This document shows positions 299 through 51,394 of a stretch of DNA of 64,000 nucleotides, piece after piece. Made by a program: the position numbers and the translations under genes. The DNA comes from Opitutales bacterium. Its GTDB lineage: Bacteria; Verrucomicrobiota; Verrucomicrobiia; Opitutales; JBHJGM01. Position 1 is the stretch's first letter, and each line of letters begins with the position of its first letter. Under the pieces are notes generated by a model. It worked only from the letters and a program-made list of their open reading frames with translations, was not told where the DNA came from and did no database searches. The stretch covers positions 153,627 through 217,626 of the forward strand of contig JBHJGM010000002.1 in the NCBI GenBank assembly GCA_050331815.1, read 5' to 3'.

Positions 299-1384
299 TC
301 ATCGTGCGATCGGAGTAGAAGGTGCCTGGACAGCGTCGCAGAGGACACGCGCCATCATCGGCAGGGGGACTTGTTTTTGAGAGGCACCCAGTTCGTCAGC
401 GGCTTTGGGCATTCCGTAGACGACGCAGGTATCTGCGGATTGGGTGAAAGTGTTGGCACCGCCTTTGCGCAATTCCAGCAGGCCTTCAGCGCCGTCTCGG
501 CCCATGCCAGTAAAGACGGCGGCGGTGGCGTGCGGAGCGGCCTTAGCGGCCACGGCGGAGCGAAAGAGCACATCGACGGCGGGGCGCTGGTGCCAGACGG
601 GCGGACCCATATTCAAGCCAATGCGGTAGGCACCGCCAACCCAGGTAACGGTCATGTGCTGATCGCCGGGAGCGACCAGGACCAGGCCCGGTTGCGTGCG
701 ATCGCCGTCCTTTGCTTCGCGGACTTCCAGCGCGCTCATCTGGTTCATGCGGTCGGCCCAGGCAGAACTGAAAAAGGCCGGGATGTGCTGAACGATGAGG
801 ATGGGCGGCATGCTGGCCGGCAGGGCGGAAATGACACTTTTGACCGCCTCCGTTCCCCCGGTGGACGAGCCGAGCAGAACAAGCTGCCGCGGATGGGCCC
901 CGCCGGAGCTTTGGAAGGGGGGAGCGGTGATGGGACGGCGCGCGAAAGGCGCACGGGTGGCATCGATGTGGGTCTGCAGCCGGCAGCGTGCGGCCGCCTT
1001 GACCTTGTGGGCCAGCAGGGAGCCGAGGTTGCCGATGTCGCGCGAGCTCTTGGGCTTGCCCAGAACCTCGACCGCGCCTCGGTTGAGCGCCTCCATGGCG
1101 ACGCTTGAGCCGGATTTGCTGAGTGAGCTGATGATCACCACCGGCAGCGGATGCTGCTTCATCAGGATGCCCAGAAAGGTCAGCCCATCCATTTTGGGCA
1201 TCTCGATATCGAGGGTGAGGACGTCGGGCTTGACCTTGAGGATGAGGTCGCGGGCCTCGTACGGGTCTCCGGCGGTGCCGACGATCTCGATCTCCGGATC
1301 GGCTGCAAGGAAACGTGAGATTTGTCGGCGTACTACCGCTGAGTCATCAACGATGAGCACCCGGACTGGCCCGGTCTCTCCCAT
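299..1384 (-). CDS. cheB: chemotaxis response regulator protein-glutamate methylesterase CheB
   Basis: N-terminal receiver (VRVLIVDDSAVVRR...DVLTLDIEMPKMDG) plus C-terminal methylesterase domain (LVLLGSSTGG, GMGRDG). 361 aa, directly after cheR. Confidence 0.9.
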   Translation of the reverse strand: MGETGPVRVLIVDDSAVVRRQISRFLAADPEIEIVGTAGDPYEARDLILKVKPDVLTLDIEMPKMDGLTFLGILMKQHPLPVVIISSLSKSGSSVAMEALNRGAVEVLGKPKSSRDIGNLGSLLAHKVKAAARCRLQTHIDATRAPFARRPITAPPFQSSGGAHPRQLVLLGSSTGGTEAVKSVISALPASMPPILIVQHIPAFFSSAWADRMNQMSALEVREAKDGDRTQPGLVLVAPGDQHMTVTWVGGAYRIGLNMGPPVWHQRPAVDVLFRSAVAAKAAPHATAAVFTGMGRDGAEGLLELRKGGANTFTQSADTCVVYGMPKAADELGASQKQVPLPMMARVLCDAVQAPSTPIAR

Positions 1385-1410
1385 ACGATATGTTAGACGT
1401 TGTTGCCGGT

Positions 1411-2259
1411 TTACACTTTTTTGTAAATCGACGGTTTGATGAGTTTCAATCCATGACGCACACCTGTCAAACTTTCCGAATGTCCAATAAAGAGATAACC
1501 TCCGGGAACAATGTGCTGGGCGATGCGTTGTACCAAGTCTTCCTGCGTTTCGCGGTCGAAATAGATCATGACGTTGCGGCAGAAGACGACCTGGAAGGGC
1601 TCGCGCCAGGGAAAGCTGCGATCCATCAGGTTCATGTGCGTGAAATTGAGCCGCCCGCGAACCGGTTCCTTGATGCGAAAGAGGACCTCGTTGCCGCGGC
1701 GTCCCTGCTCGAAGTACTTTTTCATCCAGTCGCGGCGGATTTTTTCAACCTGCGGCGGGGCGAAAATGCCCTCGCGGGCCTTGGCCAGGATGCGGGTTGA
1801 AATGTCGGTGCACTCGATGCGGTAGGCCTCCGATTGGCCTTTGAAGAACTGGTCGAGCACGATGCTGACCGAGTAGGGCTCCTCGCCGGAGGAACAGGCT
1901 GAGGACCAGACCCGAAAGGTGCCGCCGCCTGAAGCGAGTTCGGGCAGGGCCTGCTTGTAGAGGAATTCGAAGTGGGCCGGTTCGCGGAAAAAGAACGTGT
2001 AGTTGGTGGAGATGGAGTCGATCAGGTTGGTCCATTCCTCCTCGCTGTTGGGCCCCTGCAGCAGGTCGATGTAAGCCTTGAAGTTCGGGAGCTTGAGCGC
2101 GCGCAGGCGTTTGTTGAGGCGCGCCTTGACCAGTTCGCGTTTGTTGGGGCCGAGGTTGATGCGGCAGTGATCGTAAATAATCGAGCGGAAGTACTCGTAC
2201 TCGCGGTCGCTGAGGTCGTGGGTTTGGGGGGCGGAGGATTTGGCGGCGACGCTGCTCAT
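1411..2259 (-). CDS. cheR: chemotaxis protein methyltransferase CheR
   Basis: CheR-type N-terminal helical region (LSDREYEYFRSIIYDHCRINL) and SAM-methyltransferase core (RVWSSACSSGEEPYS, VFCRNVMIYFD). 282 aa. Confidence 0.9.
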   Translation of the reverse strand: MSSVAAKSSAPQTHDLSDREYEYFRSIIYDHCRINLGPNKRELVKARLNKRLRALKLPNFKAYIDLLQGPNSEEEWTNLIDSISTNYTFFFREPAHFEFLYKQALPELASGGGTFRVWSSACSSGEEPYSVSIVLDQFFKGQSEAYRIECTDISTRILAKAREGIFAPPQVEKIRRDWMKKYFEQGRRGNEVLFRIKEPVRGRLNFTHMNLMDRSFPWREPFQVVFCRNVMIYFDRETQEDLVQRIAQHIVPGGYLFIGHSESLTGVRHGLKLIKPSIYKKV

Positions 2260-9444: not shown

Positions 9445-11124
9445 GTGCAACATCCGCCAGCCAAAATCCAGTTCGCACTCCCGGCCCGTAACACGTTTGA
9501 GCCAGGTGTGCCGCGTCCGCGCCCGCGTTCGGATGCCCCACTTTTTGAGTTACCTGAAGAGCGCCGCTTGGAGACTGAGCCCCAGGGACAGGAGGAGAAT
9601 AAGCTACCCACTGACGCCCAAAGGCGACTGGAGACGGATAATTCCGCGGCCCAATTGAGACCGGTGCCGATGCCTCCGAAGAGTGAGGTTTCGGACACCG
9701 AAGCCGAAGGTGCAGCGGAGCCTTTGTTGAGAAAAGATGCTGCCGAGGACGGCGAGCCCGTGCTCGTTCACCCGCAACAGCTGAAGCGAGATGTCAACGC
9801 GCAAGCCAGTCACACGAAGGCAAGTGCCGAGGTGCCGACCTCGCCTATGGGGGCTGCGACGATGCGTTCAACTATTGAAAAATCGCCCGAGCCGGCGGCG
9901 ACCGAGCCACATCAGATTGCGTCGAAGGCAGCGCTGCGAGCCAAGGCTCAAGCTGCACCTCAGACATCCGCAGGCGAGCGAAACGGAACGCGCGTTGAGG
10001 TTCAGGAGGCAGCCCAACATTCGCAGGAGCGCACCGCTCAAAAGTCTGAGGCGGCAGTCGCTGGAGCTCCGGCAAAATCGCAGCGAGCATCACAAACGAT
10101 GGGCCAGCCTCCGCTTACGCAGGAGGCGACCATGGCTGCGGAAGGCGCTGAAAACAAGACCGTCCCCGCGCAAGCATCGGTATCGTATGCTTCAGATCGA
10201 TTTGCTGCCGAAACGACTGCTGCGAAGCCGAAAGAACTGGCCGTAAAGTCAATGGTGTCAGAGCCGGCGATTCAACCTGAAGCGAGCAAAAAGCCCGTGC
10301 AAACCACGCTGGGTGCCGAGTTGAACAAAGCGGATGCGGCACGCGCGCAGCTGACGGGTTTGGGCGCACCTGCGGAACCCGCCGTACTTGCGGAAATTAT
10401 TGCCGCCCGCGCCCCGGAACAGACAAGCACACGGGGCTCGGAGTCTATCTTTAGGGCACTTTCTGAAATTATGTTAAGCGTTGCAGAACAGGTCTTTAAG
10501 GGACAGTCAAAAGTCGGTGGCACAGCGGTTGCTCAGGAAACCGAAGCTCCGATGAAAGTCACCAACCCTGAGATCGAAACGCGGCCTTCGCCACATGCCT
10601 TACGCTCTGGTTTTAATGGACTGGGCGGCAGCGGGTTTGGCGCTTCGAGCGGGTCTTTTAGTGGCTTTAGTGGTGACTCGCGCGAACAGTCCTTTGGCCA
10701 GGGGCGTTCGCGTGACGGGCGCACTTCTTTGACTGGTAACGTGATGGCCCGTGACAATGCCGGTCCGAGCTTTGAACAGGCCCAGCAGAGCGCCGAGGCT
10801 CAGCGCGGTTTTGGCTCCGCTGGGGCACAACGAGCGGCAGAAGTCGTGCCAGCGGTTTTGCAGCAGATCGAGCGTTTGCGTCGCAGCGGCACGGAACGCC
10901 TCAACGTGACCCTGCCGCTCGAAGACGGGCAGATTGTCGACCTCCGGCTCAAGCTTTTTGGTGGCAGCCGCGTTCAGATTACGCTGGGCGAGATGCCAGA
11001 AGCCCTGCGTGCGTCTCTGCGCGAAGGCTGGGGCGCATTGGCCGACGAAGCGGCGACCCGTGGCCTGGCCATCGATTTTCAATGGGACGCGCAGCCGAAG
11101 CTGCCGCGCGCCCGCTTTGCATAG
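9445..11124 (+). CDS. fliK: flagellar hook-length control protein FliK (GTG start)
   Basis: 559 aa of Ala/Pro/Glu/Gln-rich low complexity with a C-terminal Flg_hook-like block (RLNVTLPLEDGQIVDLRLKLFGGSRVQITL). Lies between the fliJ block and flgD. Confidence 0.65.
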   Translation: MQHPPAKIQFALPARNTFEPGVPRPRPRSDAPLFELPEERRLETEPQGQEENKLPTDAQRRLETDNSAAQLRPVPMPPKSEVSDTEAEGAAEPLLRKDAAEDGEPVLVHPQQLKRDVNAQASHTKASAEVPTSPMGAATMRSTIEKSPEPAATEPHQIASKAALRAKAQAAPQTSAGERNGTRVEVQEAAQHSQERTAQKSEAAVAGAPAKSQRASQTMGQPPLTQEATMAAEGAENKTVPAQASVSYASDRFAAETTAAKPKELAVKSMVSEPAIQPEASKKPVQTTLGAELNKADAARAQLTGLGAPAEPAVLAEIIAARAPEQTSTRGSESIFRALSEIMLSVAEQVFKGQSKVGGTAVAQETEAPMKVTNPEIETRPSPHALRSGFNGLGGSGFGASSGSFSGFSGDSREQSFGQGRSRDGRTSLTGNVMARDNAGPSFEQAQQSAEAQRGFGSAGAQRAAEVVPAVLQQIERLRRSGTERLNVTLPLEDGQIVDLRLKLFGGSRVQITLGEMPEALRASLREGWGALADEAATRGLAIDFQWDAQPKLPRARFA

Positions 11125-14363: not shown

Positions 14364-14621
14364 ATGGAAAGTGCGCTGCAATCACAAAATCTGGACGTCG
14401 TCCTGGATGTTAAAGTGCGCGTCACCGTGCAGCTCGGTACGGCGGACTTGCCGATGCGCGAAATCGTCGAGTTGGCTCCGGGCTCCATCGTGCAGTTACA
14501 CCAGGAGGCCAAGGATCCGGTGGGGCTGTTCGTGAACGGCAAGTTGGTGGCTTATGGAGAAGTCGTTGTGGTCGAGGATCACTTCGGTATCAAAATCACT
14601 GAGCTGGTTGGAGAGAGCTGA
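14364..14621 (+). CDS. fliN: flagellar motor switch protein FliN
   Basis: 85-aa SpoA domain (LDVKVRVTVQLGTADLPMREIVELAPGSIVQL...GEVVVVEDHFGIKITEL). Confidence 0.9.
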   Translation: MESALQSQNLDVVLDVKVRVTVQLGTADLPMREIVELAPGSIVQLHQEAKDPVGLFVNGKLVAYGEVVVVEDHFGIKITELVGES

Positions 14622-17250: not shown

Positions 17251-17307
17251 TAGTGGGGAAGTGGCTCAGGCGGTTTGCCGTCGCGAGTCTGCCCAAGCTT
17301 CCCTCAT

Positions 17308-18411
17308 ATGGCCGACACCGATAAGAGCTCGAAGACAGAACAGCCAACCACCAAACGCCTCGACGAAGCGCGCCGCAAGGGCAACTTCGCCAAGGCGGCG
17401 GAGATCGGCGTGACGGCTTTGATGATCGCCGGTTCAGCGGCGCTGGCCTTCGGCGGCGCCTCAATGGGCGCAGAGGTGATGACCTTCTCTCGGGACCTGC
17501 TGGGAAGTCTGAACGAGTTCACGCCCTCGCAGCAAAACGCCGCCCATACCTTTGGCCAGGTGGCCCTGTTGACCGGTTCGGTAACCGCGCCCGTGCTGCT
17601 GGGCTGCGTCTTCGCCTCGATTCTGGCCGGCGGACTTCAATCCGGCTTTCGCCTGACGCCGGACGTTCTGAAGGTGAACTTCAACAAGTTCAATCCGGTC
17701 AACGGCTTCAAACGCATCTTCTCCTCGCGCAGTCTGATGCAGTTTTTCGTTGACCTGGCAAAGTTCGGCCTGGTGGGCGCGGTCATCTACGGAGCGATTC
17801 TGCAGGCGATGGCCGACCCGATTTTCTACGCGCCGGTCGGCATCGATCACATCGTCTGGTTCCTGGGCCACACCTCCGCGCTGCTGATGATCCGGCTGAT
17901 CGCGGTTTTGGCCATAATTGCCTTCATCCACTACCTCTTCGAGCGCCGCAAGACCAATGGCGACCTGAAGATGACCAAGCAGGAGGTCCGCGATGAGCGC
18001 AAAAACGCCGAGGGTGATCCGAAGGTGCGCGGTGAAATGCGCCGGCGCGCCCTGCGTGCGTTGCAAACGCAGATGCTCGACGAGGTGCCCAACGCCGACG
18101 TCGTCGTCACCAACCCGACCCACTACGCCATTGCACTGAAGTACGAACGTGGCCGCGATCTGGCCCCGGTCATTCTGGCCAAGGGCGAAAACCTCTTTGC
18201 CAAGCGCATCAAGGCGATCGCGGCCCAGCACGGTGTGCCCACTGTAGAAAACAAGCCGGTGGCCCGCCTGCTTTTCCGCGTGGGACGCGTCGGCGAGCCC
18301 GTTCCTTATGAACTGTACGAGGTAATCGCGAAGATCCTCTCTCACGTCTACCGCACCCACCGGTACTACTTCCACCAACTGCGCCAGCGCCGCCTGGCGA
18401 TGGCTTCCTAA
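17308..18411 (+). CDS. flhB: flagellar export switch protein FlhB (start at the ATG at 17308)
   Basis: MADTDKSSKTEQPTTKRLDEARRKGNFAKAAE N-terminus, four TM helices, NPTH autocleavage motif (VVVTNPTHYAIAL). Confidence 0.9.
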   Translation: MADTDKSSKTEQPTTKRLDEARRKGNFAKAAEIGVTALMIAGSAALAFGGASMGAEVMTFSRDLLGSLNEFTPSQQNAAHTFGQVALLTGSVTAPVLLGCVFASILAGGLQSGFRLTPDVLKVNFNKFNPVNGFKRIFSSRSLMQFFVDLAKFGLVGAVIYGAILQAMADPIFYAPVGIDHIVWFLGHTSALLMIRLIAVLAIIAFIHYLFERRKTNGDLKMTKQEVRDERKNAEGDPKVRGEMRRRALRALQTQMLDEVPNADVVVTNPTHYAIALKYERGRDLAPVILAKGENLFAKRIKAIAAQHGVPTVENKPVARLLFRVGRVGEPVPYELYEVIAKILSHVYRTHRYYFHQLRQRRLAMAS

Positions 18412-18417
18412 GCAGGC

Positions 18418-20652
18418 ATGGCGCAGCAGGAACCAACGATGAAGGCCACAGGGCCGGGGCGCGGGCGCTGGGACGTGTTGCTGGGCAACAGCGACCTGCT
18501 CTTCACCTTTGCCCTCTTCGGCATCATCACGCTGCTGATTCTGCCGGTGGCGCCGGTCTTTCTCGATCTGCTGCTGGCCGCCAGCATCGGGCTTTCGCTG
18601 CTGGTGCTGCTGGTGGTGATTTACCTGCGCGACCCCACGGAGTTTTCCATCTTTCCGACCATGCTGCTGGCCGTGACGCTCTTTCGTCTCGGCCTCAACG
18701 TTGCTTCGACCCGCCTCATTCTGGTGGACGGTTACGCCGGTAGCATCATCCAGTCGTTCGGCGATTTTGTGGTGCAGGGCAACTACGTGGTGGGCGTGGT
18801 GGTGTTCAGCATCCTCGTGGTGATCAACTTTGTCGTCATCACCAAGGGTGCCGGGCGCATCGCCGAGGTTACAGCCCGCTTCACCCTCGACGCCATGCCC
18901 GGCAAGCAGATGGCTATCGATGCCGAGCTAAACGCCGGGCTCATCGACGAAGCCGCCGCCACCCAGCGTCGCAAGAAAATCCAGGACGAAGCCGATTTTT
19001 ATGGCGCGATGGACGGTGCCAGCTAGTTCGTACGCGGCGACGCGGTGGCTGGAATCCTCATCACGCTGATCAACATCGTGGGCGGCATCGCCATTGGTGC
19101 CTGGCAGCGCGGCCTGCCCATCATGGAGGCGATGCAGACCTACACGTTGCTGTCGATCGGCGACGGGCTGGTCTCCCAGATTCCGGCCCTTATCGTCAGC
19201 GTGGGCGCGGGTATGCTGGTGACCCGGACGGCCACGGGTTCGAACCTCGGGTCGGAAATCGCTCGGCAGTTTTCCATTTATCCGCGGGCCCTAGCTATCG
19301 GGGGCGCGATGCTTTTCATCTTCGCACTAGTGCCCGGTCTGCCGACCCTGCCTTTCGGCATGCTGGGGGTCGCGTGCGTGACCGCCGCCTGGTTCCTTGA
19401 GAAAAAAGGCGGTGCGGCTAAGGCCCGGGCAGCCAGCGGTATGCTTGAAAACGCGCCCGGCCAGCCCGCGTTACCCGGTGGGGCCAACGTCTCGCCGGAC
19501 GCGACACCCGAAAAGCCGCGCCCTGGCTCGATCGAGGAATTGCAGACGATGATCGGCACGGACCGCTTCGCCATCGAACTCGGTTACAACCTGCTCAGCC
19601 TGGCCAGCGAAGCCGATCAGGGCGACCTGCTGCAGCGCGTCACGGGCGTGCGCCAGAAGTTCGCCCGGGAGCTTGGGTTGATCGTTCCGCCCTTGGCCGT
19701 CCGCGACAACCTCGAGCTCGAAGGCAACGAGTACCGCTTCCTTTTGCGCGGCAAAGAGGTCGCCCGCGCCACGCTCGAGCCGAAGCGCTGGCTGGCGATG
19801 AACGTCTCGGGCAGCCCAGTTGAACTTAAGGGGACGCCCACGGTCGAGCCGGTCTTTGGCCTGGATGCGGTTTGGGTGGCCGACGAGGAGCGCAAGAATG
19901 CCGAGATTCATGGCTTCACCGTGGTCGATGCGGGCTCGGTCTTGATCACTCACCTTTCCGAGGTCCTGCGCGACAACGCTCATCAACTGATCGAGCGTCA
20001 GGATGTCCAGCAGTTGATTGATGCGGTCAAGGATAAGAATGCCACGCTCATCAGTGAGTTGCTGCCGGATCTCGTATCCGTAGGATTAATACAGCGGGTT
20101 CTACAGAACCTGCTGCGCGAGCAGGTGCCGATTCGCAACCTCACACTCATTTTGGAGACCATCGCCGACTACGCGCCCTTGACCAAGAGCGCCGACGAAC
20201 TCTCTGAACAAGCCCGTCGCCGTCTGGGCCCGTATTTCATTACCGCGCTACACGATGCCCAGGGTCAGTTGCCCGCGTTGACCCTTGAGCCCCGGTTGGA
20301 GCAGGCCCTGGTTTCCCGCGTTAAGCGCACGCAGTTCGAGGTCGGCCTGATGATGGACCCGGAATTGACGGGCTTTTTGCTGGAGCAACTCACGCTCTGC
20401 ACCAAGCAGCTTTCAGACGAAGGCCAGGAAGCCATCCTCATCACCACAAGCGAGGTACGCCTGGCTTTCCGGCGCTTCTTCGAGCCGAACTTTCCCCGCC
20501 TGTGTGTCCTGGCCTACCAGGAAGTGCCCGCGCAGACGGAGATTCGCAACCTGGGCGTTATCACCGCTCCGCTGCCGCGTGGCGGTGAAGTTACCCCGAT
20601 GCCTCAGGCACAGATGCCGCAGTCGCCCAACGCCGAAGCGATGACCGCCTAA
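18418..20652 (+). pseudogene. flhA: flagellar export gate protein FlhA, interrupted by one in-frame TAG at 19024-19026
   Basis: ORF 18418-19026 ends ...[12 protein letters not shown]. The same frame continues FVRGDAVAGILITLINIVGGIAIG... to 20652. Together they reconstruct a full-length FlhA (~744 codons) with the stop replacing the Lys of the conserved GASKFVRGD motif. Confidence 0.85.
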
Positions 20653-20681: not shown

Positions 20682-21902
20682 ATGACGACACTTAAGGACC
20701 AGCCCACCGAATCCCTTGTCGGACGCAAGTTCCGCTTTATCGTCAGTTCGGCGGAAGAGGCGGTCACGCTCATCCGGGAGAATCTCGGTCCGCAGGCACG
20801 CGTGCTCACCGTCAAGCAGGTCGATGGCAAGGGGCTCACCCGGTTTCTGGGCAGCCCGAAGTTGGAGGTCATCGCAACCATTCCCAAAGACGCTGACTCT
20901 ACCGAGCAGACGCCCAAACAGCATAAGCCAGGCGAAGCCGAGCCCGAGCGCAGCAGTGCACCGTACGTACGCCCGGCGGAGGATACCCGCGATTCAGGGG
21001 TTCAATACGCGCGACCGGCAGCCGTCCCGCAGTCCGTGGCCGATTCATTTTCTGCAAACGCGGCTGCAGCCGGCACAGGTGAGACGCCCGACAAAGAAGA
21101 AGCCCCGGCCTCCCCGTTGCTGCGCGAGCCCAAGCCAGCCCGTCGCCCGACGAACGCCCTGGCGGATCTGTTGCGTAAGGCCCAGTTCGATGAAGGCCTG
21201 CTCTCGCGTCTGGAAAACGCCCCGGAGTGGCCGAGGCTCTGTGGATTGCCACGGGAACAGGCTCTGGGAGAAGTGTTTCAATGGCTGGGACGTGAACTGC
21301 GCCAGGTTGAGGAGCGCCCGCTCGGTCCGCGCATCGCTTTTTTGGGTACGCCCGGGGTGGGCAAGACCACGGCTCTCTGCAAGCAACTGGCCCAGGAGGT
21401 TTTCTTCGACCAGACGCAGAACCTCAACGTGCTCAAGCTCGATCACGAGGAGCCTAACCCGGACGACGCCCTGCGTACCTACTGCGATGTGCTCGGCCTG
21501 CCCTTGCTGCGCGAAGGCGACAGCCGCGATTCCCTCACCGCCGAAAGCATCATTTTCTACGACTTGCCGGGTGTGACACTGCGCGACGCTATGGGCTGGG
21601 CCAGTGCGCGCCAGCGCCTGGATGATGAAGCTGTCGACACGCGTGTGCTGGTGTTAAACGCCGCCTACGATCTCCAGCTTTTGAAGGAAGGTGTCCAAGC
21701 CGGCCATGAGATCGGCGCGACGCACCTGGTCTTCACGCACCTGGATGAGATCGGACAGCCCAACCGCCTGTGGCCCTGCCTGCTGCGCTCGGGTTTGCCC
21801 ACGCTGTTCTTCAGCGAAGGCCCCGGCATCAGCGGCGAATGCTCGCGCGACGTGCAAGGCTTCATGATGGACCGCGCGCTTCCCGCCCTCATCGGTCGCT
21901 AA
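20682..21902 (+). CDS. flhF: flagellar biosynthesis SRP-type GTPase FlhF
   Basis: G1 FLGTPGVGKTT, G3 DLPG, G4-like THLDE. Basic/disordered N-terminal B-domain. Lies after flhA. Confidence 0.8.
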   Translation: MTTLKDQPTESLVGRKFRFIVSSAEEAVTLIRENLGPQARVLTVKQVDGKGLTRFLGSPKLEVIATIPKDADSTEQTPKQHKPGEAEPERSSAPYVRPAEDTRDSGVQYARPAAVPQSVADSFSANAAAAGTGETPDKEEAPASPLLREPKPARRPTNALADLLRKAQFDEGLLSRLENAPEWPRLCGLPREQALGEVFQWLGRELRQVEERPLGPRIAFLGTPGVGKTTALCKQLAQEVFFDQTQNLNVLKLDHEEPNPDDALRTYCDVLGLPLLREGDSRDSLTAESIIFYDLPGVTLRDAMGWASARQRLDDEAVDTRVLVLNAAYDLQLLKEGVQAGHEIGATHLVFTHLDEIGQPNRLWPCLLRSGLPTLFFSEGPGISGECSRDVQGFMMDRALPALIGR

Positions 21903-21920
21903 CGCTTTGATTACTGTATC

Positions 21921-22385
21921 GTGAAAATCGTCGTCAAAGAAGGTAAGTTCATGTTGGCCCTGGGTGGTTTCGCCGGGTTCATGGCCTGTTTCTTTGGCAC
22001 GATGTTGGGTTCGGGCGACCCGTTCATCGCGTTGCGCAACGGCTCCATTGGCTGCCTGCTGGGCTTTTTTATGTGCAAGGGCGCGATGCTGGTTGTGCTC
22101 AACAACATGCAGTCGGTGCTGGAGCGGAAGTACCGCGAGCGTGTGCGCGAGGCGCGCGCTCTAGCAGAAAAAGCGGCTGCTGAGGAAGCCGCCGCTTCGG
22201 AAAAGGCCGCCGCCGAAGCCCTGGGCCAGGTAAATGAACGCCTGCGCCGGACCCGCGAGCATGCCAACGCCGCCGCTGCCGAAGCTGCCCAGAAAGCTTC
22301 CGAAAAGGAAACAGCCACGGCTGGTGCACCTGCGCCTGAATCCGCAGCTGCATCGCCTTCCGAGCCCGTCGGGGCGGAGGCGTAA
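21921..22385 (+). CDS. hypothetical small membrane protein with an Ala/Glu-rich coiled-coil tail (start GTG 21921 or ATG 21951)
   Basis: Two predicted TM helices (LALGGFAGFMACFFGTMLG; IGCLLGFFMCKGAMLVVL), then REARALAEKAAAEEAAASEKAAAEAL.... High GC3, co-directional, occupies the flhG slot between flhF and fliA. Confidence 0.45.
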   Translation: MKIVVKEGKFMLALGGFAGFMACFFGTMLGSGDPFIALRNGSIGCLLGFFMCKGAMLVVLNNMQSVLERKYRERVREARALAEKAAAEEAAASEKAAAEALGQVNERLRRTREHANAAAAEAAQKASEKETATAGAPAPESAAASPSEPVGAEA

Positions 22386-32012: not shown

Positions 32013-32912
32013 ATGCGCGTCCCCGATTCTAGTTTCGTCAACACGCTGATTCCGCAGTTGGAGCGGCTGAACTACCAGCAGCACAAGCTGCAAAATCAGG
32101 CAGCCACCGGGCAAAAGGTGTTTTTGCCTTCGGACGATCCCGCTGCGGTGGGCCGCGCGCTTGAGCTTCAGGGCGAAAAGGACCAGATTCAGCAGTTTCG
32201 CCGCAATATCTCGCGGGCGGATGCGCTCAGCCACGCCGCCTTCAACAGCGTCGAAAGCATGCAGCAGATCCTCCTGCAAGCGGGCGAAGTCGCCATCAAA
32301 GCCAACGGGCTGACCTCCGCGGACGGCTTCCCGGCCTACGCAATCGAAGTCGACAGCCTGCTGGAGGATTTCGTCAACTTGGCCAACAGCGATTACCTGG
32401 GCGAATACCTGCATGCGGGTACCGCCACCCAGACGGCGCCGTTCACCGTCACGCGGCCCGATCCGGACAACCTGATCAAGTCTGCGGCCTACGTCGGGCA
32501 TGCGACCAATCTGCCGACGTTTCGCATCACCGAGTCCCAGGACTTTTCTCCCTTCACGCGCACCTCGACCAATGCGGCCCTGGTCGATGGCATGAACAAC
32601 CTGATCGCGTTGCGCGATGCGCTGAACGCTGAAGACGTGAGCGCCATTCAGGCCGCCCAGGAGAACATCCGCGCCCAGGAGGACATCCTGGTGGAGGAGA
32701 TGTCCCTCATCGGCTCGCATCTGACCACGCTCGAAATTGTTACCAACCGCAGCGACGTGGCTTTTTTCAACTACGAGCAAAACATCTCGAAGGAGGTCGA
32801 CGCCGACCTGGCTGAGACCCTCGTGCAACTCAACAGCACCAGCCTTGCCTATCAGGCTGCCCTGCAAAGTGGTTCACAAATCATGAACCTCTCCCTGCTC
32901 AATTATCTCTAA
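32013..32912 (+). CDS. flgL: flagellar hook-associated protein 3 FlgL
   Basis: Flagellin-family N/C helices (QNQAATGQKVFLPSDDPAAVGRALEL...LVQLNSTSLAYQAALQSGSQIMNLSLLNYL). Follows flgK. Confidence 0.8.
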   Translation: MRVPDSSFVNTLIPQLERLNYQQHKLQNQAATGQKVFLPSDDPAAVGRALELQGEKDQIQQFRRNISRADALSHAAFNSVESMQQILLQAGEVAIKANGLTSADGFPAYAIEVDSLLEDFVNLANSDYLGEYLHAGTATQTAPFTVTRPDPDNLIKSAAYVGHATNLPTFRITESQDFSPFTRTSTNAALVDGMNNLIALRDALNAEDVSAIQAAQENIRAQEDILVEEMSLIGSHLTTLEIVTNRSDVAFFNYEQNISKEVDADLAETLVQLNSTSLAYQAALQSGSQIMNLSLLNYL

Positions 32913-33015
32913 GCAGCCTCGGGCGGACTGACTCAGCGGTGGCCCAGCACCGCTGTGAAGCGCGGCACGTAAAAAAATACTTAAACGGTTCATCCTTTGT
33001 TCCGAATAGGTTCTC

Positions 33016-33453
33016 GTGGCTACTGCCGACATAGAGAAGAACGAAGCCGGTCTGGATACCAGCATCGTTGAACTGCCCGAGGGCATCATCGGTTTTCCCG
33101 AAATGAAGGAAGCCGAGATTGTCTTCAGTGAGGAGGAACTGCCGTTTCTGCGCCTGCGCGACAAGCAACCTGGTGGCCTCACCCTGCTTGTCGTGGAGCC
33201 CGGTCCGCTTGTTCCCGGCTATCAGCCTGAGATTCTCGACAACGACCTCGGCTTCCTTGAAATCACCAAGCCCGAGGAGGTCCTCTTGCTGAACATCGCT
33301 TCCATCCACGAGCAGGCCAGCGTGGAAGTCACCCTCAACCTGGTTGGTCCCATTGTGGTCAACCGCCGCAACCGTCGCGCCCGTCAGGTCGTGATCGGAA
33401 ACTTTCAGAACTACACTGCCCGCTTCAAGCTGTTTGAAGCCGAGGGCGACTGA
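33016..33453 (+). CDS. fliW: flagellar assembly factor FliW (GTG start)
   Basis: VELPEGIIGFPEMKEAEIV...PFLRLRDKQPGGLTLLVVEP...NLVGPIVVNRRNRRARQVV. Immediately upstream of csrA. Confidence 0.8.
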   Translation: MATADIEKNEAGLDTSIVELPEGIIGFPEMKEAEIVFSEEELPFLRLRDKQPGGLTLLVVEPGPLVPGYQPEILDNDLGFLEITKPEEVLLLNIASIHEQASVEVTLNLVGPIVVNRRNRRARQVVIGNFQNYTARFKLFEAEGD

Positions 33454-33506
33454 TCCGCTGCCACTCGCACGCCACTTTCTAAGCTCCGCCTAAAAAGGTT
33501 ATACCC

Positions 33507-33746
33507 ATGCTCGTGCTTTCCCGCAAAGTTGAGGAAGCCGTCGTCATCGACGGGCGCATCGAGGTACGGATCACCAAGGTCGAGGGCGATGTGGTGAAAA
33601 TCGGAATCAAGGCGCCTCGGGAAATTTCCGTCTATCGCAAGGAGTTATACGATTCTGTGCGCCAGAGTAATGAGGAAGCCGTAGCCGCCGCGCGCAAGAC
33701 GCGCTTCCCCGGGCGCGCCGCTGCCGCTGCGCGTAAGCGCTCTTGA
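33507..33746 (+). CDS. csrA: carbon storage regulator CsrA (FliW-partnered type with C-terminal extension)
   Basis: [48 protein letters not shown]. 79 aa. Confidence 0.95.
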
Positions 33747-33900
33747 GGCAGCAAGAGGAAGCCGTGATCAGGCTTACCATTTGATCGTTGGGATAAGGGT
33801 GTCTGTAAAGCTGCGAGCTACAGGAGGACTCAAGGTTACTCCTTGGCTATCATCAGTTAACTGTATCTGTCCTTTAGCGAACTTTTTACCGTGAATGCGG

Positions 33901-33927
33901 TAAGGCCACGTCATTACTGGACGATGA
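33901..33927 (+). promoter_or_regulatory. weak sigma-28-like promoter candidate upstream of the MCP gene
   Basis: TAAG-N15-GACGATGA versus TAAA-N15-GCCGATAA (3/4 and 6/8 matches). ~70 nt upstream of the ATG at 34001. Confidence 0.25.
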
Positions 33928-34000
33928 TTAGTCCGTCGTGCTTCAGGTCGCTTTGCCTCAGCAGATGACGTCAGTTCCACACATTTTGCCTGTCTGATTT

Positions 34001-35695
34001 ATGAAACTTGGGACCAAGATTATCGGGAGCGCCGTGGGCGCCGTCACCTTAACCACCGCGGTGGCCCTCTACGTGCAGAGCGGAGTCGCCCACGACCTTG
34101 GCGTCGAAATGCTCGAGCACGAGTTGCGGGCCACCCTGGTGCAGGCCGAAAGCGTGCGCGATGCCTTTTCCGAACTCAGCCAGGCCAACGCTTTTGATAT
34201 CGAAACCCTTTCCGCCGAGTTGGAAGATGCTAACGGCGACTACAAGTCCACCACCTTTTACAAGACCGTTCCGGTCGTAGCTGCCTGGGACGGGCTGAAG
34301 GAAGTCGCCGCTTTGGAGGGCTTTCAGTTTCGCGTGGTTCGGGAAGACCCGCGCAACCGCGAGAACCGCCCGGATGCGTTCGAGCTCGAGATTTTGAGTC
34401 AGCTTGAAGCCGGCGCTGAAGAGGTCTTCATCGAGCGTGACGACATCAACGCGGTGACCTTCGCCCGCCCGGTCTTCATCACCGAGGACTGCCTCTTCTG
34501 TCACGGCGACCCCAAGAACAGCCCCACCGGCGACGGCAAGGATGTGCTCGGTTTCGCCATGGAAGATTGGGATGTGGGCGACCTTCGCGGCGCGTTCATT
34601 TTGACTGCCGACTTGGAAGGCGTCGATGAGGTCGCACAGGCCGGCATCATCGAGGTGATTTTCTGGGCGATACCTGTAGTCATCATAATTTGCGGCGGAT
34701 TGTACTTTCTCGTGCGCAAAGCGGTTACCTTGCCATTGGGCCGCGCTATCGAAGATCTCAACACCGCCTCGGAACAGTCCGGTTCGGCGACCACCGAGAT
34801 TTCCAGCGCAAGTTCCTCGCTGGCTAACAGTTGCTCCGAACAAGCGGCCGCGCTGGAGCAGACCCGCGCCTCCGTTGACGAAATTTCCGGCCTGGCCGGT
34901 CGCAACAGCGAGAGTGCTCGCAAGGCGCTCGAACTTGCCGAGCAGGCCAGCGATGTGGCCCGTGAAGGCAGCAGCGGCATGGAGCAGATGAACGAGGCCA
35001 TGCTCGCCATCAAGGATTTCAGCGACCAGATCGCCAAGACCATGAAGACGATCGACGAGATCGCCTTCCAGACGAACATCCTCGCCCTCAACGCTGCTGT
35101 CGAGGCCGCGCGGGCCGGGGAAGCCGGTGCCGGATTCTCCGTGGTCGCCGATGAGGTGCGCGCCCTCGCGCAGCGTTCCGCGCAGGCTGCTCAGGACACC
35201 TCATCACTGCTCACCGAGGCAAGCGCCCGCAGTGAGCACGGCGTAACGCTCTGTTCAAACGTTCGCGAGAAAATCGACCGCATCGTCGAAACCGTCGCCA
35301 CCGTGAACGAGTTTGTGACCTCCGTCACGCAGGCCAGCGATGAGCAATCCAGCGGACTGCGCGAAGTTGTCCAGGCGGTCGCTCAGGTCGACGGTGCCAC
35401 CCAAACCAACGCCGCCAACGCCGAAGAAACAGCCTCTGCCTGCTCGGAACTCGAGGCGCAGATCGAAGCGCTCCGTGGCGTTGTCGTCGGTCTGGTGGGT
35501 GTGATGGACGGGGGCGCCACCCTGCCGCCGCAGTCGAATTTCAATGCGTCCAAAGGCGGGGGTGCTTCAGGCCAACAAAAAGGTTTTTCCATCCGTCCGG
35601 AAGCGCCCGCAATTCAGGGTGGCGGCGACCTGAACTTCCCCCAGCGTCAGAACGAAGAAGAATTCGTCGTCTCAGACGGTGGCTGGAAGAACTGA
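34001..35695 (+). CDS. methyl-accepting chemotaxis protein with a CXXCH (haem-c) periplasmic sensor domain
   Basis: TM1, ~190-aa periplasmic domain containing CLFCH (nt 34490-34504), TM2, then the conserved MCP signalling hairpin (IDEIAFQTNILALNAAVEAARAGEAGAGFSVVADEVRALAQRS). Confidence 0.9.
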   Translation: MKLGTKIIGSAVGAVTLTTAVALYVQSGVAHDLGVEMLEHELRATLVQAESVRDAFSELSQANAFDIETLSAELEDANGDYKSTTFYKTVPVVAAWDGLKEVAALEGFQFRVVREDPRNRENRPDAFELEILSQLEAGAEEVFIERDDINAVTFARPVFITEDCLFCHGDPKNSPTGDGKDVLGFAMEDWDVGDLRGAFILTADLEGVDEVAQAGIIEVIFWAIPVVIIICGGLYFLVRKAVTLPLGRAIEDLNTASEQSGSATTEISSASSSLANSCSEQAAALEQTRASVDEISGLAGRNSESARKALELAEQASDVAREGSSGMEQMNEAMLAIKDFSDQIAKTMKTIDEIAFQTNILALNAAVEAARAGEAGAGFSVVADEVRALAQRSAQAAQDTSSLLTEASARSEHGVTLCSNVREKIDRIVETVATVNEFVTSVTQASDEQSSGLREVVQAVAQVDGATQTNAANAEETASACSELEAQIEALRGVVVGLVGVMDGGATLPPQSNFNASKGGGASGQQKGFSIRPEAPAIQGGGDLNFPQRQNEEEFVVSDGGWKN

Positions 35696-35723
35696 GCGGA
35701 CGCTCCCGGCCAAGCTTTTTTCC

Positions 35724-35758
35724 AACGGCTCCCCGCACCTGGGGAGCCGTTTGCTTTT
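35724..35758 (+). terminator. rho-independent terminator after the MCP gene
   Basis: Perfect 11-bp stem AACGGCTCCCC / GGGGAGCCGTT, 6-nt loop, then TGCTTTT. Confidence 0.7.
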
Positions 35759-35844
35759 ATAGAGCCTATACTGCGGATTTTGAAGCCTTTGGCGCTTCAG
35801 GGGAGCCCGTATCTTGACGATTCATGCATAGCTAAGATCGCAAA

Positions 35845-37794
35845 ATGGCTATTAAATTCATAGGCCGTGATTCCGAGATCGATCGCCTTACCCGGGATAT
35901 CGGGCGCGGCTTTCGTGGCAACGGCGTGCCCACGGTCACGTGCGTCTACGGGCCCACCGGTATCGGCAAGTCCGCGTTTCTGGAGTTTTTTTGGGAGCGC
36001 ATCTCCAGCCTGCAAATTCCGTCCGTCTGCATCCGTGCCAAAGTCCCCGCGGAAGGCGCCGACGTGCGCGCCTGGCTGGAAGCGATCACACCGGACATCC
36101 GGGCCAGCCATCCCGCCATTCAAAAGCGCCTGGTCCGCTTTCGCCATGCCTTTGCCCAGAAAATGGCCTACCTCGACCACGGCACGCGACCGCCCTTCGA
36201 CCCGCAGCGTCCCGACGCCGCGCTGTTTGAATGGTGGCTGACCGAGCTGTGCGTCAACCTCATCGACCCGGACCAGAAAGAAGGCCGGCGGATCTCCCAG
36301 GTGCGGCTCTTCTGGTACCTCGACGATTTTGAACGCTGGCCGCCGATTTGTGAAACTTGGTTCGGCGTCTGGCTCCCGCGCGTTTTCAAGGCGCATGCGG
36401 AATCCTGTGAGCAGCGCTTTTTCACGGTGCTCGAAAAGGAACCCGCTGCGGTCACCGGATTTAAGGCTATCTGGGAGCGCGTGGGCGAGGTCACTGCGCC
36501 CATCGAACTGGCACCCTTCAGCAAGCAGCAGACGGCGGCGTTTCTGGAGTCCGCCAACCTGCCTGCCGATCAGCTCGACCATGCCTACGAGACCACCGGC
36601 GGGGTACCGGGACGCCTGGCCGAGTACCTAGACAGTCAGTCGAATGCGGGCAGCGAGCAGGAGGTCTCGCTGGTCGAAGGCGTCTTCAAGGGCAAGAGCC
36701 AGCGGGAGAACCAGTTCATTCTCTGGGCCGCGCACCTGCGTTGGTTCAGCCGCGAGTTTTTGCGATTCTTCGCCGGAAGCACCACCGGCGACGACGCCTT
36801 TGCCTACCTCAAGTTGCGCCTGGAGTTGGAACTGACGCCCACCTCCGGAGGCTATCAGGTAAGCGGGGCGGTGGCCGACGCATTGACTGCCTGGCACAAG
36901 CAGCGCCAGCCCGAAGAGTACGAGGCCTTCGAACGACGGGCTCAAATCTGCATGGACCTGTTTCACTCGGTTGGCAACGCCGCCGATTTGGGGATCCTCT
37001 CGCTGCTGGCCCGCTTTCGTTTCTTCAACAACCAGCTGATCGAACAGATCCTCCCGACCGACTCAAAGACGGTCCGCCTGTTCATCAAGGCCAACCCCCA
37101 CTTCTTTTACGAAACCGAGCACAATCAGGCTGTCGCGGATCCCTTTCGCTCACAGTTCAACGAGTACAACAGTCTGGTTGCTCACCCACAGGAACGCGAG
37201 CTGCGCGAAAAAATCCAGAACGCCTGGAACGAGCGGCGCGACGGTGTGCTGCGCGAGATGCACGAGATCGACGAGTCCATCCAGCGCGAAGAAAAAACCC
37301 TGGAAGGCATCAGCGAGGAACTCAGCAAGATGAACGCTGACAACCGGGCCAAGCGCTTTGACGAAAAGCTGACGGAGTCGCCCGACGTCAAGGTGCAGTT
37401 TGCCGGACCCAGCCCAGCGGGTGGACTGAGCGTTTTCTGCCTGGTGGGCGTCCTCGGGCTTATTTTGGGTGTAATATTCCTTTATATGGGGATCCTTTTC
37501 GCCGATCATTTTTCCATGACCTACTGCGCGGTCGGCGTGATGTGCCTGGTAGTCGGCCTTTCCGTACCGTACCGCCGCCGTCCCCAACCCCGCTCCGCTC
37601 CGATCGCCGCCGTGTCCAAACCTCGACCCAAAGCGCCACCTCCGCCGCCTTCCGATTCGAATCAGCGTCTGCTCAATATGAAACTGACCAACCTCGAGAA
37701 CAAACGATCGCTCATCATCGAATCGCTGGCGCGCCAACGCCAACGCCTGGCCGAACTCGACAGCCTGCTCTGCGAACCGTACGCCAACGCGTAA
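35845..37794 (+). CDS. membrane-anchored P-loop NTPase (AAA_16/STAND-like N-terminus, coiled coil, TM hairpin, Pro-rich/coiled-coil tail)
   Basis: FIGRDSEIDRL lead-in, Walker A GPTGIGKS (nt 35950-35973), Walker B-like RLFWYLDDFE. Also a coiled coil (ELREKIQNAWNERRDGVLREMHEIDESIQREEKTLEGISEELSKM), two adjacent TM helices (LSVFCLVGVLGLILGVIFLYMGILF; YCAVGVMCLVVGLSV) and a PKAPPPPPS tail. Confidence 0.6.
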   Translation: MAIKFIGRDSEIDRLTRDIGRGFRGNGVPTVTCVYGPTGIGKSAFLEFFWERISSLQIPSVCIRAKVPAEGADVRAWLEAITPDIRASHPAIQKRLVRFRHAFAQKMAYLDHGTRPPFDPQRPDAALFEWWLTELCVNLIDPDQKEGRRISQVRLFWYLDDFERWPPICETWFGVWLPRVFKAHAESCEQRFFTVLEKEPAAVTGFKAIWERVGEVTAPIELAPFSKQQTAAFLESANLPADQLDHAYETTGGVPGRLAEYLDSQSNAGSEQEVSLVEGVFKGKSQRENQFILWAAHLRWFSREFLRFFAGSTTGDDAFAYLKLRLELELTPTSGGYQVSGAVADALTAWHKQRQPEEYEAFERRAQICMDLFHSVGNAADLGILSLLARFRFFNNQLIEQILPTDSKTVRLFIKANPHFFYETEHNQAVADPFRSQFNEYNSLVAHPQERELREKIQNAWNERRDGVLREMHEIDESIQREEKTLEGISEELSKMNADNRAKRFDEKLTESPDVKVQFAGPSPAGGLSVFCLVGVLGLILGVIFLYMGILFADHFSMTYCAVGVMCLVVGLSVPYRRRPQPRSAPIAAVSKPRPKAPPPPPSDSNQRLLNMKLTNLENKRSLIIESLARQRQRLAELDSLLCEPYANA

Positions 37795-37834
37795 GCGGTC
37801 AGCCTCACACTAACTTTCAGGCGAACGGATACTT

Positions 37835-38356
37835 GTGGGCGGCGCTCCTTCCATTGGCGGAATTTTTACCCAGCGTATCGTGGTGGGCGTGGGGGACCAG
37901 GCGGTCTCCAACAACGCCACGGCCACGGTCAGCACCTACGCGCTGGGCTCCTGCGTGGCGGTGGTCACCTTCGACAAGGGTACTGGGGTGGGGGGCATCC
38001 TGCACGTGATGCTACCCGAGTCGAAGCTCTCGCCGGACAAGGCACGCAATCAGCCTGCCATGTTCGCAGATACAGGTCTACGCGTGTTCTTTCGCGATCT
38101 GCAGGGCCTGGGCGCGAACACCCGCAACCAGCGCATCGTGCTCGCCGGCGGTGCCGCGGTGCTCAGCGGCAGCGACAGTTTCAAGATTGGCGAACGCAAC
38201 ACGGCGGCCATCCGCCAGATCCTCAACGGCGCGGGCCTGCGTGCCTGTTTTGAGGATGTCGGCGGCGTGACCAACCGCACCCTCCACCTCACGCTCTCCA
38301 ATGGCACCCTCGAAATCAAGATGCCTTCGGGTAATCGCTACGTGGAGATGGCATGA
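37835..38356 (+). CDS. cheD: chemoreceptor glutamine deamidase CheD (GTG start)
   Basis: VSTYALGSCVAVVTFDKGTGVGGILHVMLPES and IGERNTAAIRQIL motifs. 173 aa. Confidence 0.85.
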   Translation: MGGAPSIGGIFTQRIVVGVGDQAVSNNATATVSTYALGSCVAVVTFDKGTGVGGILHVMLPESKLSPDKARNQPAMFADTGLRVFFRDLQGLGANTRNQRIVLAGGAAVLSGSDSFKIGERNTAAIRQILNGAGLRACFEDVGGVTNRTLHLTLSNGTLEIKMPSGNRYVEMA

Positions 38357-39210
38357 CACTCGAATCACTTATCAAACAAACCGAGAAGCTCCTGCCTAGC
38401 CCGCAGGTGCTGCCGCGTTTGCTCACCGTACTCGAAAGCGATGACGCCTGCGCCTGGGACATCGTCGACTTGGTCAAGCTCGACGCCGCCCTGACCACGC
38501 AAGTCCTCGCCCTGAGCAACAGCGCCTTTTACGGCTTTGCCAGCACAAGCACCGATCTGGAGGAAGCCGTCAACCGACTCGGCTTCCGCGAATTGTACAA
38601 GCTCGTCAGCCTGGTGCTTTGCCGCAAGCTGATCGGCAAGGATAGCCTCGAAGCGTACCTGCTCGCCGAGGGCCAGCTCTGGGAGCATTCTCTCGCCACT
38701 GCCGTGGCCGCCGAAAACATCGCTGGGCTGGCCGCTGAGGATTCCTCACTGGCTTATACGGTCGGTTTGATGCATTGCATCGGCAAGCTGGCTATCAACC
38801 AGTTGGGCTCCGGACACTACGAAGCAGTCTACCGTAAAATCGAGGAGGAGAACCTCACCATGCTCGAAGCCGAGCGCGCCGTCATGGGCTTCGACCATGC
38901 CGAGGCCACCGCCGCGCTGCTGCGTCACTGGAATTTTCCGGAGGAGGCCTGGAAACCGATCCAGCACCAGTACGTGCCCGCAGAGGCCGTCGCCCACAAG
39001 GGCATGACCGCGGTGCTGCACACGGCTGTTTACGTGGCCGCCATCACCGGTACGAACCATGGCCGCGACGCCTGGGCCTTCCGTTTGGACGACAACGCTT
39101 TGAAGATGGCCCGCCAGACGCCCGAGTCGATTCAGGAGATCGTCATCCAGGTCGTCGAGCGTCTGGAGACCGTCAAGGGCCTGATCGGCACCAACGCGAA
39201 CAACAAGTAA
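38353..39210 (+). CDS. HDOD domain protein
   Basis: LPSPQVLPRLLTVLESDDACAWDIVDLVKLDAALTTQVLALSNSAFYGF...GLMHCIGKLAI...GFDHAEATAALLRHWNFPEE. ATGA overlap with cheD. Confidence 0.8.
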   Translation: MTLESLIKQTEKLLPSPQVLPRLLTVLESDDACAWDIVDLVKLDAALTTQVLALSNSAFYGFASTSTDLEEAVNRLGFRELYKLVSLVLCRKLIGKDSLEAYLLAEGQLWEHSLATAVAAENIAGLAAEDSSLAYTVGLMHCIGKLAINQLGSGHYEAVYRKIEEENLTMLEAERAVMGFDHAEATAALLRHWNFPEEAWKPIQHQYVPAEAVAHKGMTAVLHTAVYVAAITGTNHGRDAWAFRLDDNALKMARQTPESIQEIVIQVVERLETVKGLIGTNANNK

Positions 39211-39231
39211 ATCCGCTTTACGCTCAACGTT

Positions 39232-40164
39232 ATGCTGTCTGCCCGCAAAAAGGAACCCACCACGCTCGCCGACCAGCCGGTGGGCGATCTCGATGTGCTG
39301 AAGCAGAAGGTCGACGATTGCCCGATGCTGCCCTCGCTGCGGCGCATCGGCGAGTCCCTTAAAGAACTGCTCGAAGGCGAGAACGCGACCTCGGCCTCCA
39401 TCGCTGAAATCGTCGAACGCGACCCCAGTCTTTCCACCCGCGTGATGAAGATCGTCAATTCGGCGCTCTTCGGTCTGTCCCGGAAGGTCGAGGCCATCGA
39501 GGACGCCGTCTTTTACCTGGGTGTGCGCCAGATTCGCGAGCTGGCCATGAGCCTGCCGGTTATCGACGAAACCTCTTCAATGTGCGCGGGCAGCGCCTCG
39601 GGAGCCACCTGGCAAAGTTTCTGGGAGCACAGCCTTGCCGTGGCCGTGACCAATCGCGAAATCCACGGTTTGGCCAATTTGAACGAGGAGTTCGATGTCG
39701 GTTACATTTCCGGGCTGGTCCACAACATTGGGCTGATCGCCCAGGCGCAGATTTTTCCGGTCGAGTTCGCGCGCAACCTCGCGTTGCCCCCGTTGGATAG
39801 TGCGCAGGCCTTCACCGCTTTTGAACGCGAAAACATCGGTTGGGACCACGGCCTGATCGGTTCATTTTACCTGGCGCGGCACCAGATGGGTGCGGAGATT
39901 CTCGAGAGCGTGCAGTTCCACGTCGCGCCGAGTTTGGCCGTGGAACATCCTAAGTTTGCCGCCGCCGTCGAGCTTGCCGAGTCCATTGCGCGCTGCAGCG
40001 GCCTGATCGGAGCCGAGCCCATCGAGCTGCCCCATCAGGACGACTGGACGCGTTCCAACTCCCTCGAAATCCTCTTTCCGGAAGAGAGCATTCGCACCCG
40101 CGCGGTGGAGCGGCTCGAGCGTTTTGCCGGCAAGCTGCCGCTGGCGCTCGACGTTTTGAAGTAG
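39232..40164 (+). CDS. HDOD domain protein (second copy)
   Basis: LPSLRRIGESLKELLEGENATSASIAEIVERDPSLSTRVMKIVNSALFGL...GLVHNIGLIAQ...GWDHGLIGSFYLARHQMG. Confidence 0.8.
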   Translation: MLSARKKEPTTLADQPVGDLDVLKQKVDDCPMLPSLRRIGESLKELLEGENATSASIAEIVERDPSLSTRVMKIVNSALFGLSRKVEAIEDAVFYLGVRQIRELAMSLPVIDETSSMCAGSASGATWQSFWEHSLAVAVTNREIHGLANLNEEFDVGYISGLVHNIGLIAQAQIFPVEFARNLALPPLDSAQAFTAFERENIGWDHGLIGSFYLARHQMGAEILESVQFHVAPSLAVEHPKFAAAVELAESIARCSGLIGAEPIELPHQDDWTRSNSLEILFPEESIRTRAVERLERFAGKLPLALDVLK

Positions 40165-40207
40165 CGCCGGCTGCCCTGCGGGTGGGAACGATACCCGGGG
40201 CCAGATC

Positions 40208-40414
40208 CTACCGACAGCGCGCGACGAAAAAGCGCTGCGAAGTACCTTGGCTGCCCACGCGTACCCGCACGGATTTCCCGCAACTGGGGCAGCAACCGGT
40301 GTACGCGCTGCCGTCCGGCAGACGATACAGCCTGCCGTAGACGGAGCAATCGGCAAAGTAAACCCCGAGGAAGGGCTTTGCGGAGGCTCCGGCTGAGGGC
40401 GCTTGTGTTTTCAT
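40208..40414 (-). CDS. hypothetical small Cys-containing protein (possible zinc-ribbon-like)
   Basis: 68 aa from the internal ATG: MKTQAPSAGASAKPFLGVYFADCSVYGRLYRLPDGSAYTGCCPSCGKSVRVRVGS.... Cys at C-x17-CC-x2-C. Convergent with the HDOD genes. ORF evidence only. Confidence 0.3.
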   Translation of the reverse strand: MKTQAPSAGASAKPFLGVYFADCSVYGRLYRLPDGSAYTGCCPSCGKSVRVRVGSQGTSQRFFVARCR

Positions 40415-40496
40415 TTGGTGGGGAAATCGGCACATTTTCACCGATTGTTAATCTTTTTTACATATTTTCTTACGTCGATGTGATTGGGCTAGAGGC

Positions 40497-40523
40497 TAAA
40501 GCCAGTCTCTCCAACTCCGATTA
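40497..40523 (+). promoter_or_regulatory. sigma-28 (FliA)-type promoter candidate upstream of cheW
   Basis: TAAA-N15-TCCGATTA versus TAAA-N15-GCCGATAA (4/4 and 6/8). 50 nt upstream of the cheW ATG, in an AT-rich gap. Confidence 0.4.
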
Positions 40524-40573
40524 GGGCTCTAACAAACCGATTTTCTTTCAACGCAGAGCTTACACACCGAGCC

Positions 40574-46620: not shown

Positions 46621-46715
46621 GTCCCTGCGGCAGCCAAATCCAGGAAACTCCCGTTCAGCCAATTATCTAATGTCGTTTACCCTGCGTAGATATTAAATCC
46701 GTCTGCCTTCCGCGT

Positions 46716-51321: not shown

Positions 51322-51340
51322 CGAAGCAGTCTTTTTTCAA

Positions 51341-51378: not shown

Positions 51379-51394
51379 CCTTCTTGGTTTGGCC

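Follow-up and report, generated by a model that had tools for sequence, protein, structure and literature searches.

The gene for the flagellar export-gate protein FlhA in an Opitutales bacterium is interrupted by a single in-frame amber codon, and our analysis suggests that this codon probably reflects a real AAG>TAG nonsense mutation of very recent date, which is the reading that best accounts for the sequence data. The finding comes from a 64,000-nt stretch of assembly GCA_050331815.1 (contig JBHJGM010000002.1, positions 153,627-217,626 of the forward strand), referred to below as the window. In a cell carrying such an allele, translation would stop after 202 residues, within the loop between transmembrane helices 4 and 5 (TM4-TM5). 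The resulting stub, without the remaining transmembrane part and without any of the cytoplasmic ring domain, would not form an export gate; no rod, hook or filament protein would be exported, and the cell would be devoid of flagella and non-motile. Indeed, from what is established about the export apparatus, a fragment of 202 residues should be unable to form the nonameric gate, because it ends in the TM4-TM5 loop. In addition, the 1.6 kb of mRNA left untranslated may exert polarity and lower the expression of flhF, fliA and motAB, the genes that come next on this strand after short intervals. The stop codon, its position, its one-step descent from AAG, the integrity of the remaining gene and cluster and the ordinary use of TAG as a terminator are read from the sequence data; this phenotype, the polarity and the reality of the allele, as opposed to a base-call error, are inferred.

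A single flhA gene cut by a stop codon

The flhA gene, encoding the flagellar type III export-gate protein of the FHIPEP family, occupies positions 18418..20652 of the plus strand and comprises 744 codons. Its frame is set by the ATG at 18418 and runs to a TAA terminator at 20650-20652, with a single internal stop at codon 203. This stop is the amber TAG at 19024..19026 (+), which stands in place of Lys-203 and differs from the ancestral AAG by an A-to-T change at 19024. The upstream ORF (18418..19026, +) encodes 202 aa, exactly the length given for the stub in the initial annotation, and is predicted to cover the first four transmembrane helices and most of the TM4-TM5 loop. The remainder of the gene beyond the stop (19027..20652, +) consists of 541 codons, which specify the remaining transmembrane part, the linker and the cytoplasmic domain, and is undegraded. 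In the list of ORFs, a second entry in the same frame as the stub, 535 aa long, extends from the GTG at 19045 to 20652. This GTG is codon 210, lies 18 nt after the stop and is the earliest in-frame start past the TAG.

In a Pfam search, the N-terminal piece matched positions 1-169 of the FHIPEP profile (PF00771) with an E-value of 2.5e-90, and the C-terminal piece matched positions 177-656 of the 657 in the profile with an E-value of 3.9e-145, in the same frame as the N-terminal piece. Profile positions 170-176, at the junction, are the sole unmatched part. Since both pieces match FHIPEP in one frame, they represent one flhA cut by a stop and neither two genes nor the result of a frameshift. 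The match to the family is thus nearly end-to-end; an uninterrupted full-length ORF is lacking. The genomic context is likewise that of flhA, with the order flhB-flhA-flhF inside a flagellar cluster. By sequence and context alike it belongs to the FlhA/FHIPEP family, but as written it is a pseudogene allele.

Conservation of Lys-203 and the age of the lesion

For the search for homologues we used a repaired FlhA query, in which Lys was placed at position 203. The query retrieved thousands of homologues, the best of them from Opitutales/Opitutae (Verrucomicrobia); the top match is an intact protein of 734 aa with 86% identity. When the best 120 of these thousands were aligned, column 203 turned out to be Lys in all 120. 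At the level of DNA, codon 203 in 40 related loci is AAG (27 loci) or AAA (13 loci) and in no case a stop. A scan of metagenomes with a 30-nt pattern, made up of the exact 13 and 14 flanking bases with NNN at codon 203, returned 35 contigs, all of them distant (at most 72% nucleotide identity), with 22 AAG and 13 AAA codons and no stop. In the Opitutales, codon 203 is AAG in each of the five genome loci examined, namely those of the two nearest relatives, L001 and L003, and of three further members of the order. Therefore, the ancestral codon was AAG, and one A-to-T transversion at 19024 is sufficient to produce the TAG. These results bear out the initial annotation, which had placed the TAG at a conserved lysine where AAG is expected, one A-to-T change away and with no frameshift involved, and which had proposed comparing the site in close relatives.

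The position of the stop can also be related to a known structure. The alignment of the window FlhA with the 692-aa FlhA of PDB entry 36hw spans residues 28-328 of the latter, and over residues 131-233 of the query it is gap-free against residues 131-233 of the structure, with residue 203 of the query falling on residue 203. Accordingly, the stop sits at the equivalent of Lys-203 of Salmonella FlhA. The same lysine is also kept in the injectisome homologue (MDGAMKFVKGDA). As for the group of charged residues K203, R206, D208, D249 and R270 (Salmonella numbering), the last four are encoded at the aligned positions in the window and the first is the stop codon, leaving the KFVRGD motif complete except for K203. 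Lys-203 and its surroundings are assigned to the FHIPEP loop, which joins TM4 to TM5 on the cytoplasmic side (Hara et al. 2011, PMC3139655). In Salmonella, FlhA K203A complements 'to some degree' and supports FlgD secretion at the wild-type level, K203W is impaired in a bypass background, and D208A does not complement at all (PMC3139655).

How long the gene has been interrupted can be judged from the rest of its sequence. In the alignment of the 120 homologues, 187 columns reach a conservation of 97% or more; at two of these the window deviates, namely at the stop itself and at A592. The A592 variant is also present in the closest relative, P0001, and is therefore an ancestral change and no sign of flhA decay. 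At the 105 conserved columns downstream of the stop there are no window-specific deviations, which (0/105) sets a 95% upper bound of about 0.012 on the neutral substitutions per site accumulated since inactivation, as compared with a dS of about 1.05 to the nearest relative. The dN/dS ratio is 0.102 upstream of the stop and 0.095 downstream. L001 groups with L003 (94% identity), and the window stands as outgroup to this pair (84%). Where five other sequences concur, 7 amino-acid changes are unique to the window, compared with 4 and 4 on the much shorter branches of L001 and L003; by this count there is no excess of unique FlhA changes on the window lineage. An old flhA pseudogene evolving under relaxed selection is ruled out by the conserved columns, the dN/dS ratios and the lineage-specific change counts. 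By these measures, flhA was under full purifying selection until very recently, which leaves a stop of very young age or one that is not real.

The flagellar cluster and other genes of the window

The motility and chemotaxis genes form a cluster of about 41 kb, an extent that agrees with the initial annotation, running from cheB and cheR (299-2259, minus strand) to cheW (40574-41086). The former two genes are followed by a 131-aa ORF without a family match that is possibly flgB (2481-2876) and then by flgC, fliE, fliF, fliG, fliH, fliI and fliJ. After fliJ come a 197-aa ORF, a fliK-like gene, flgD, flgE and fliL through fliR. Next to flhA itself, an intact flhB (17275..18411, +), matching positions 2-335 of the 335 in the Bac_export_2 profile, ends 6 nt upstream, and an intact flhF-like gene (20682..21902, +) begins 29 nt downstream; the latter encodes 406 aa against 407 in L001, with 71% identity. 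Further on there are a 154-aa ORF, fliA, motA, motB, a 94-aa ORF, flgF, flgG, flgA, flgH, flgI, flgJ, flgN, flgK and flgL, and, past flgL, fliW, csrA, an MCP gene, an AAA ATPase gene, cheD, genes for two HDOD proteins and cheW.

Colinearity with the corresponding locus of L001, the nearest relative (contig CAYOPI010000002.1), extends from the 197-aa ORF behind fliJ to flgN. All 26 other flagellar genes compared with L001 have near-identical lengths and contain no internal stop, and their dN/dS ratios range from 0.01 to 0.41. Pfam domains are covered in full or almost in full in flgC, fliE, fliF, fliG, fliH, fliI, flgK, fliW, csrA and the che genes; flgL was identified by a weaker, partial Flagellin_N match. 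The initial impression that the other flagellar genes are intact is thus well founded. Among 56 well-supported genes of the window, flhA alone has an internal stop in its listed ORF.

Several features of the cluster deserve mention in their own right. The flhF-like gene scores 73 bits against TIGR03499, for which the cutoff is 174, and has no Pfam match at E<=0.001. It is not followed by a MinD-like flhG; the 154-aa ORF found there, without a family match, is on the plus strand as well (20682-22385 for the two together) and is conserved in L001 as a 138-aa ORF with 67% identity. The 85-aa protein encoded by fliN (14364-14621, +) is 100% identical to that of L001 despite a dS of 0.94 (dN/dS 0.011), an unusually strong constraint beside the dN/dS of 0.05-0.4 in its neighbours. 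At the other extreme is the 559-aa ORF (9445-11124, +) in the position of fliK, the gene for hook-length control. It has no Pfam or NCBIfam match, shares 37% identity with its 575-aa counterpart in L001 and, with a dN/dS of 0.39, is the fastest-evolving gene of the cluster. The chemotaxis block after fliW-csrA contains an MCP with a Tll0287-like sensor domain, a 649-aa AAA_16 ATPase, CheD, two HDOD proteins and CheW. Genes for flagellin, fliD and fliS are absent from the window (the region in question being 32013-41086), and the genes for the filament must be located in another part of the genome.

Besides flhA, the sole interrupted reading frame among the window genes is that of prfB, encoding release factor 2 (TIGR00020, 506.7 bits; 54651-55800, minus strand), the N-terminal 25 codons of which lie outside the ORF tested in the count of internal stops in 56 genes. 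This is a canonical case of programmed +1 frameshifting. Frame 0 starts with the ATG at 55800 and runs for 25 codons up to CTT TGA C at 55728-55722 (codons 25-26, with CTT for Leu-25); a Shine-Dalgarno-like GGAGG is located 3 nt upstream of the shift site, and past this site the +1 frame stays open as far as the stop at 54651. The prfB frameshift signal is conserved across bacteria. Although this is known biology, prfB would pass for a broken gene in a naive scan. In having an in-frame stop inside a conserved, essential gene, prfB resembles flhA; however, prfB possesses a canonical recoding signal, whereas the flhA TAG has none and occurs in no relative.

Outside the flagellar cluster, two further ORFs were noticed. 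Shortly after the stop of pnp at 51321 there is a gene (~51330-52168, +; MRPHLLISNDDGIDS...) that we take to be surE-like by recognition of its motif (MRPHLLISNDDGIDS); a longer mechanical ORF (50651-52168), overlapping pnp in a different frame, conceals it, and in lists of ORFs it is easily missed. A 204-aa ORF (46048-46662, minus strand) has an N-terminal motif (KRGFTLVEIAAV...) that is presumably of the prepilin type, again a call made by motif recognition; it belongs to a region (45219-48370) whose neighbouring ORFs have no family match. As to the composition of the window, the tetranucleotide CTAG is under-represented, with 31 occurrences observed against about 51 expected from trinucleotide frequencies, and the flhA mutation creates one copy. 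Genuine gene starts in the window are generally not preceded by a Shine-Dalgarno sequence.

Competing explanations and known flhA lesions

The main rival to a recent nonsense allele is an error of sequencing, polishing or consensus calling, in which case the real sequence would be AAG, the T at 19024 an artefact and flhA intact. We regard this as the less probable explanation, yet one to be taken seriously. An flhA that is flawless in every other respect is the pattern that an error would also leave, and the protein, contig, genome and metagenome collections that were searched hold no sequence from the same species that would confirm the T. The DNA nearest to the window flhA is 79% identical, relatives in the genome collection have at most 84% amino-acid identity, and neither the 202-aa stub nor FlhF had an exact match in the collections. 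On the other hand, the A-to-T change is a substitution and lies in no homopolymer or repeat, and the window has the appearance of a sequence with a low per-base error rate: throughout its 64 kb there is no N, no frameshift and, in the 56 genes, no other internal stop. Base-level quality is further indicated by the preserved canonical +1 frameshift site of prfB and by the 26 flagellar genes that match the lengths of their L001 counterparts. Of the 6696 possible single-base changes in flhA, 172 (2.6%) create a stop, and 119 of these 172 give TAG. That a chance error should fall among this 2.6% seems to us less likely than a real pseudogenising mutation, a weighing based on typical assembly error rates and pseudogene frequencies.

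If the TAG is real, it might still be decoded, whether by a suppressor tRNA(CUA), as pyrrolysine or through leaky near-cognate readthrough, so that some full-length FlhA would be made and motility would be kept or become conditional. The export gate holds a nonameric ring of FlhA, and only a handful of copies are needed; with so few copies per gate, a little readthrough might suffice. Moreover, position 203 partly tolerates substitution, as K203A demonstrates (PMC3139655). Since Lys-203 substitutions are partly tolerated, a readthrough product would, by analogy, probably retain some function. Nevertheless, we consider decoding of the stop very unlikely. The stop is not conserved, being found in 0 of 120 homologues and 0 of 40 DNA loci, and TAG terminates 16 of the 56 well-supported window genes, 11 of them flagellar, which is unlike what efficient suppression or reassignment would be expected to show. 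Reassignment of TAG in the genetic code was rejected on the same count, TAG not being depleted as a terminator. The base after the flhA stop is U, and U in this position makes a strong termination context in E. coli. Within the 64-kb window we detected neither tRNA genes nor Rfam elements, and the window proteins that were scanned included no pyl-like gene or family. As regards a stimulatory RNA structure, the segment 19015-19120 is no more stable than shuffled controls (z = +1.28). The release factor encoded in the window was set aside as evidence on UAG termination; it is RF2 (prfB), which does not read UAG, and it is silent on RF1. Low or conditional decoding of UAG by a suppressor or pyrrolysine-type tRNA encoded elsewhere in the genome or by near-cognate readthrough, acting as a conditional or stochastic motility switch, is in our estimate extremely improbable; were it true, flagellar assembly in a verrucomicrobium would depend on readthrough at a substitution-tolerant position. 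A programmed on/off (phase-variable) switch of flhA, or a gene naturally split in two in this lineage, fares worst, and this explanation is effectively refuted. Phase-variable flhA alleles based on homopolymer tracts are mentioned for other bacteria (PMC10956519), and the in-frame GTG 18 nt after the stop might be viewed as a second start. However, homopolymers, short tandem repeats and inverted repeats are all absent from 19024 and its surroundings; the only tandem repeat is at 18597-18615, no inverted repeat brackets the stop, and a point substitution does not make a high-frequency reversible switch. Codons 203-209 (KFVRGDA) would be in neither piece, and Asp-208 is indispensable (D208A, PMC3139655), on which grounds reinitiation yielding a two-piece FlhA was also discarded. 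The absence of a Shine-Dalgarno sequence before the GTG at 19045 is not informative, because the genuine starts of the window lack one too. A natural split in the lineage had been named in the initial annotation as a finding that would overturn the case for a broken gene, but L001, L003 and all 120 homologues have a single continuous flhA of 697-787 aa. Of the four options that the same annotation had offered without choosing among them, a recent nonsense mutation, or an allele polymorphic in the population, is thus favoured; an error is less likely, and functional readthrough is unlikely.

A genuine nonsense allele of very recent origin remains, in our judgement, the probable explanation. Counting against it, A:T to T:A transversions are not a common class of spontaneous mutation. 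With about 40 flagellar genes, loss of motility presents a large mutational target. If the allele is real, the strain or population is predicted to be aflagellate and non-motile despite a complete, selectively maintained cluster of about 41 kb, a call based on gene presence would wrongly predict 'motile', and the case would be a further example of quick loss of flagella, probably in culture. The annotation would then have to record flhA as one pseudogene instead of two genes. The lesion opens no new mechanistic question: point nonsense mutations that knock out the export gate and leave the remainder of the regulon intact are a familiar phenomenon, and there is nothing new here in kind.

The comparison with known systems leads to two sets of flhA mutations. 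One is the charged cluster around Lys-203 and Asp-208 of Salmonella enterica FlhA, where the window stop occupies the exact equivalent of Lys-203. However, the Salmonella work on K203 and D208 deals with missense substitutions, whereas the window codon is a terminator and the whole downstream protein would be lost; that the much-studied Lys-203 happens to be the codon hit is coincidental. Direct precedents are found in Vibrio. In V. cholerae A/20d, flhA Q533* (CAG>TAG) arose spontaneously during plain extended cultivation, and motility-defective isolates with this mutation had aberrant or normal flagella by EM (PMC10654082). In the polar-flagellum-deficient V. alginolyticus strain YM19, flhA Q295* (CAG>TAG) presumably explains the phenotype (PMC10956519). 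Taken together, these strains show impaired motility and flagella that are defective or missing. The allele described here differs from Q533* and Q295* in that it affects Lys-203 through a transversion (AAG>TAG), lies further upstream, in the TM4-TM5 loop, and belongs to a member of the Opitutales. What it has in common with the Vibrio ambers is a single base change to TAG in flhA, with the flagellar regulon otherwise intact.
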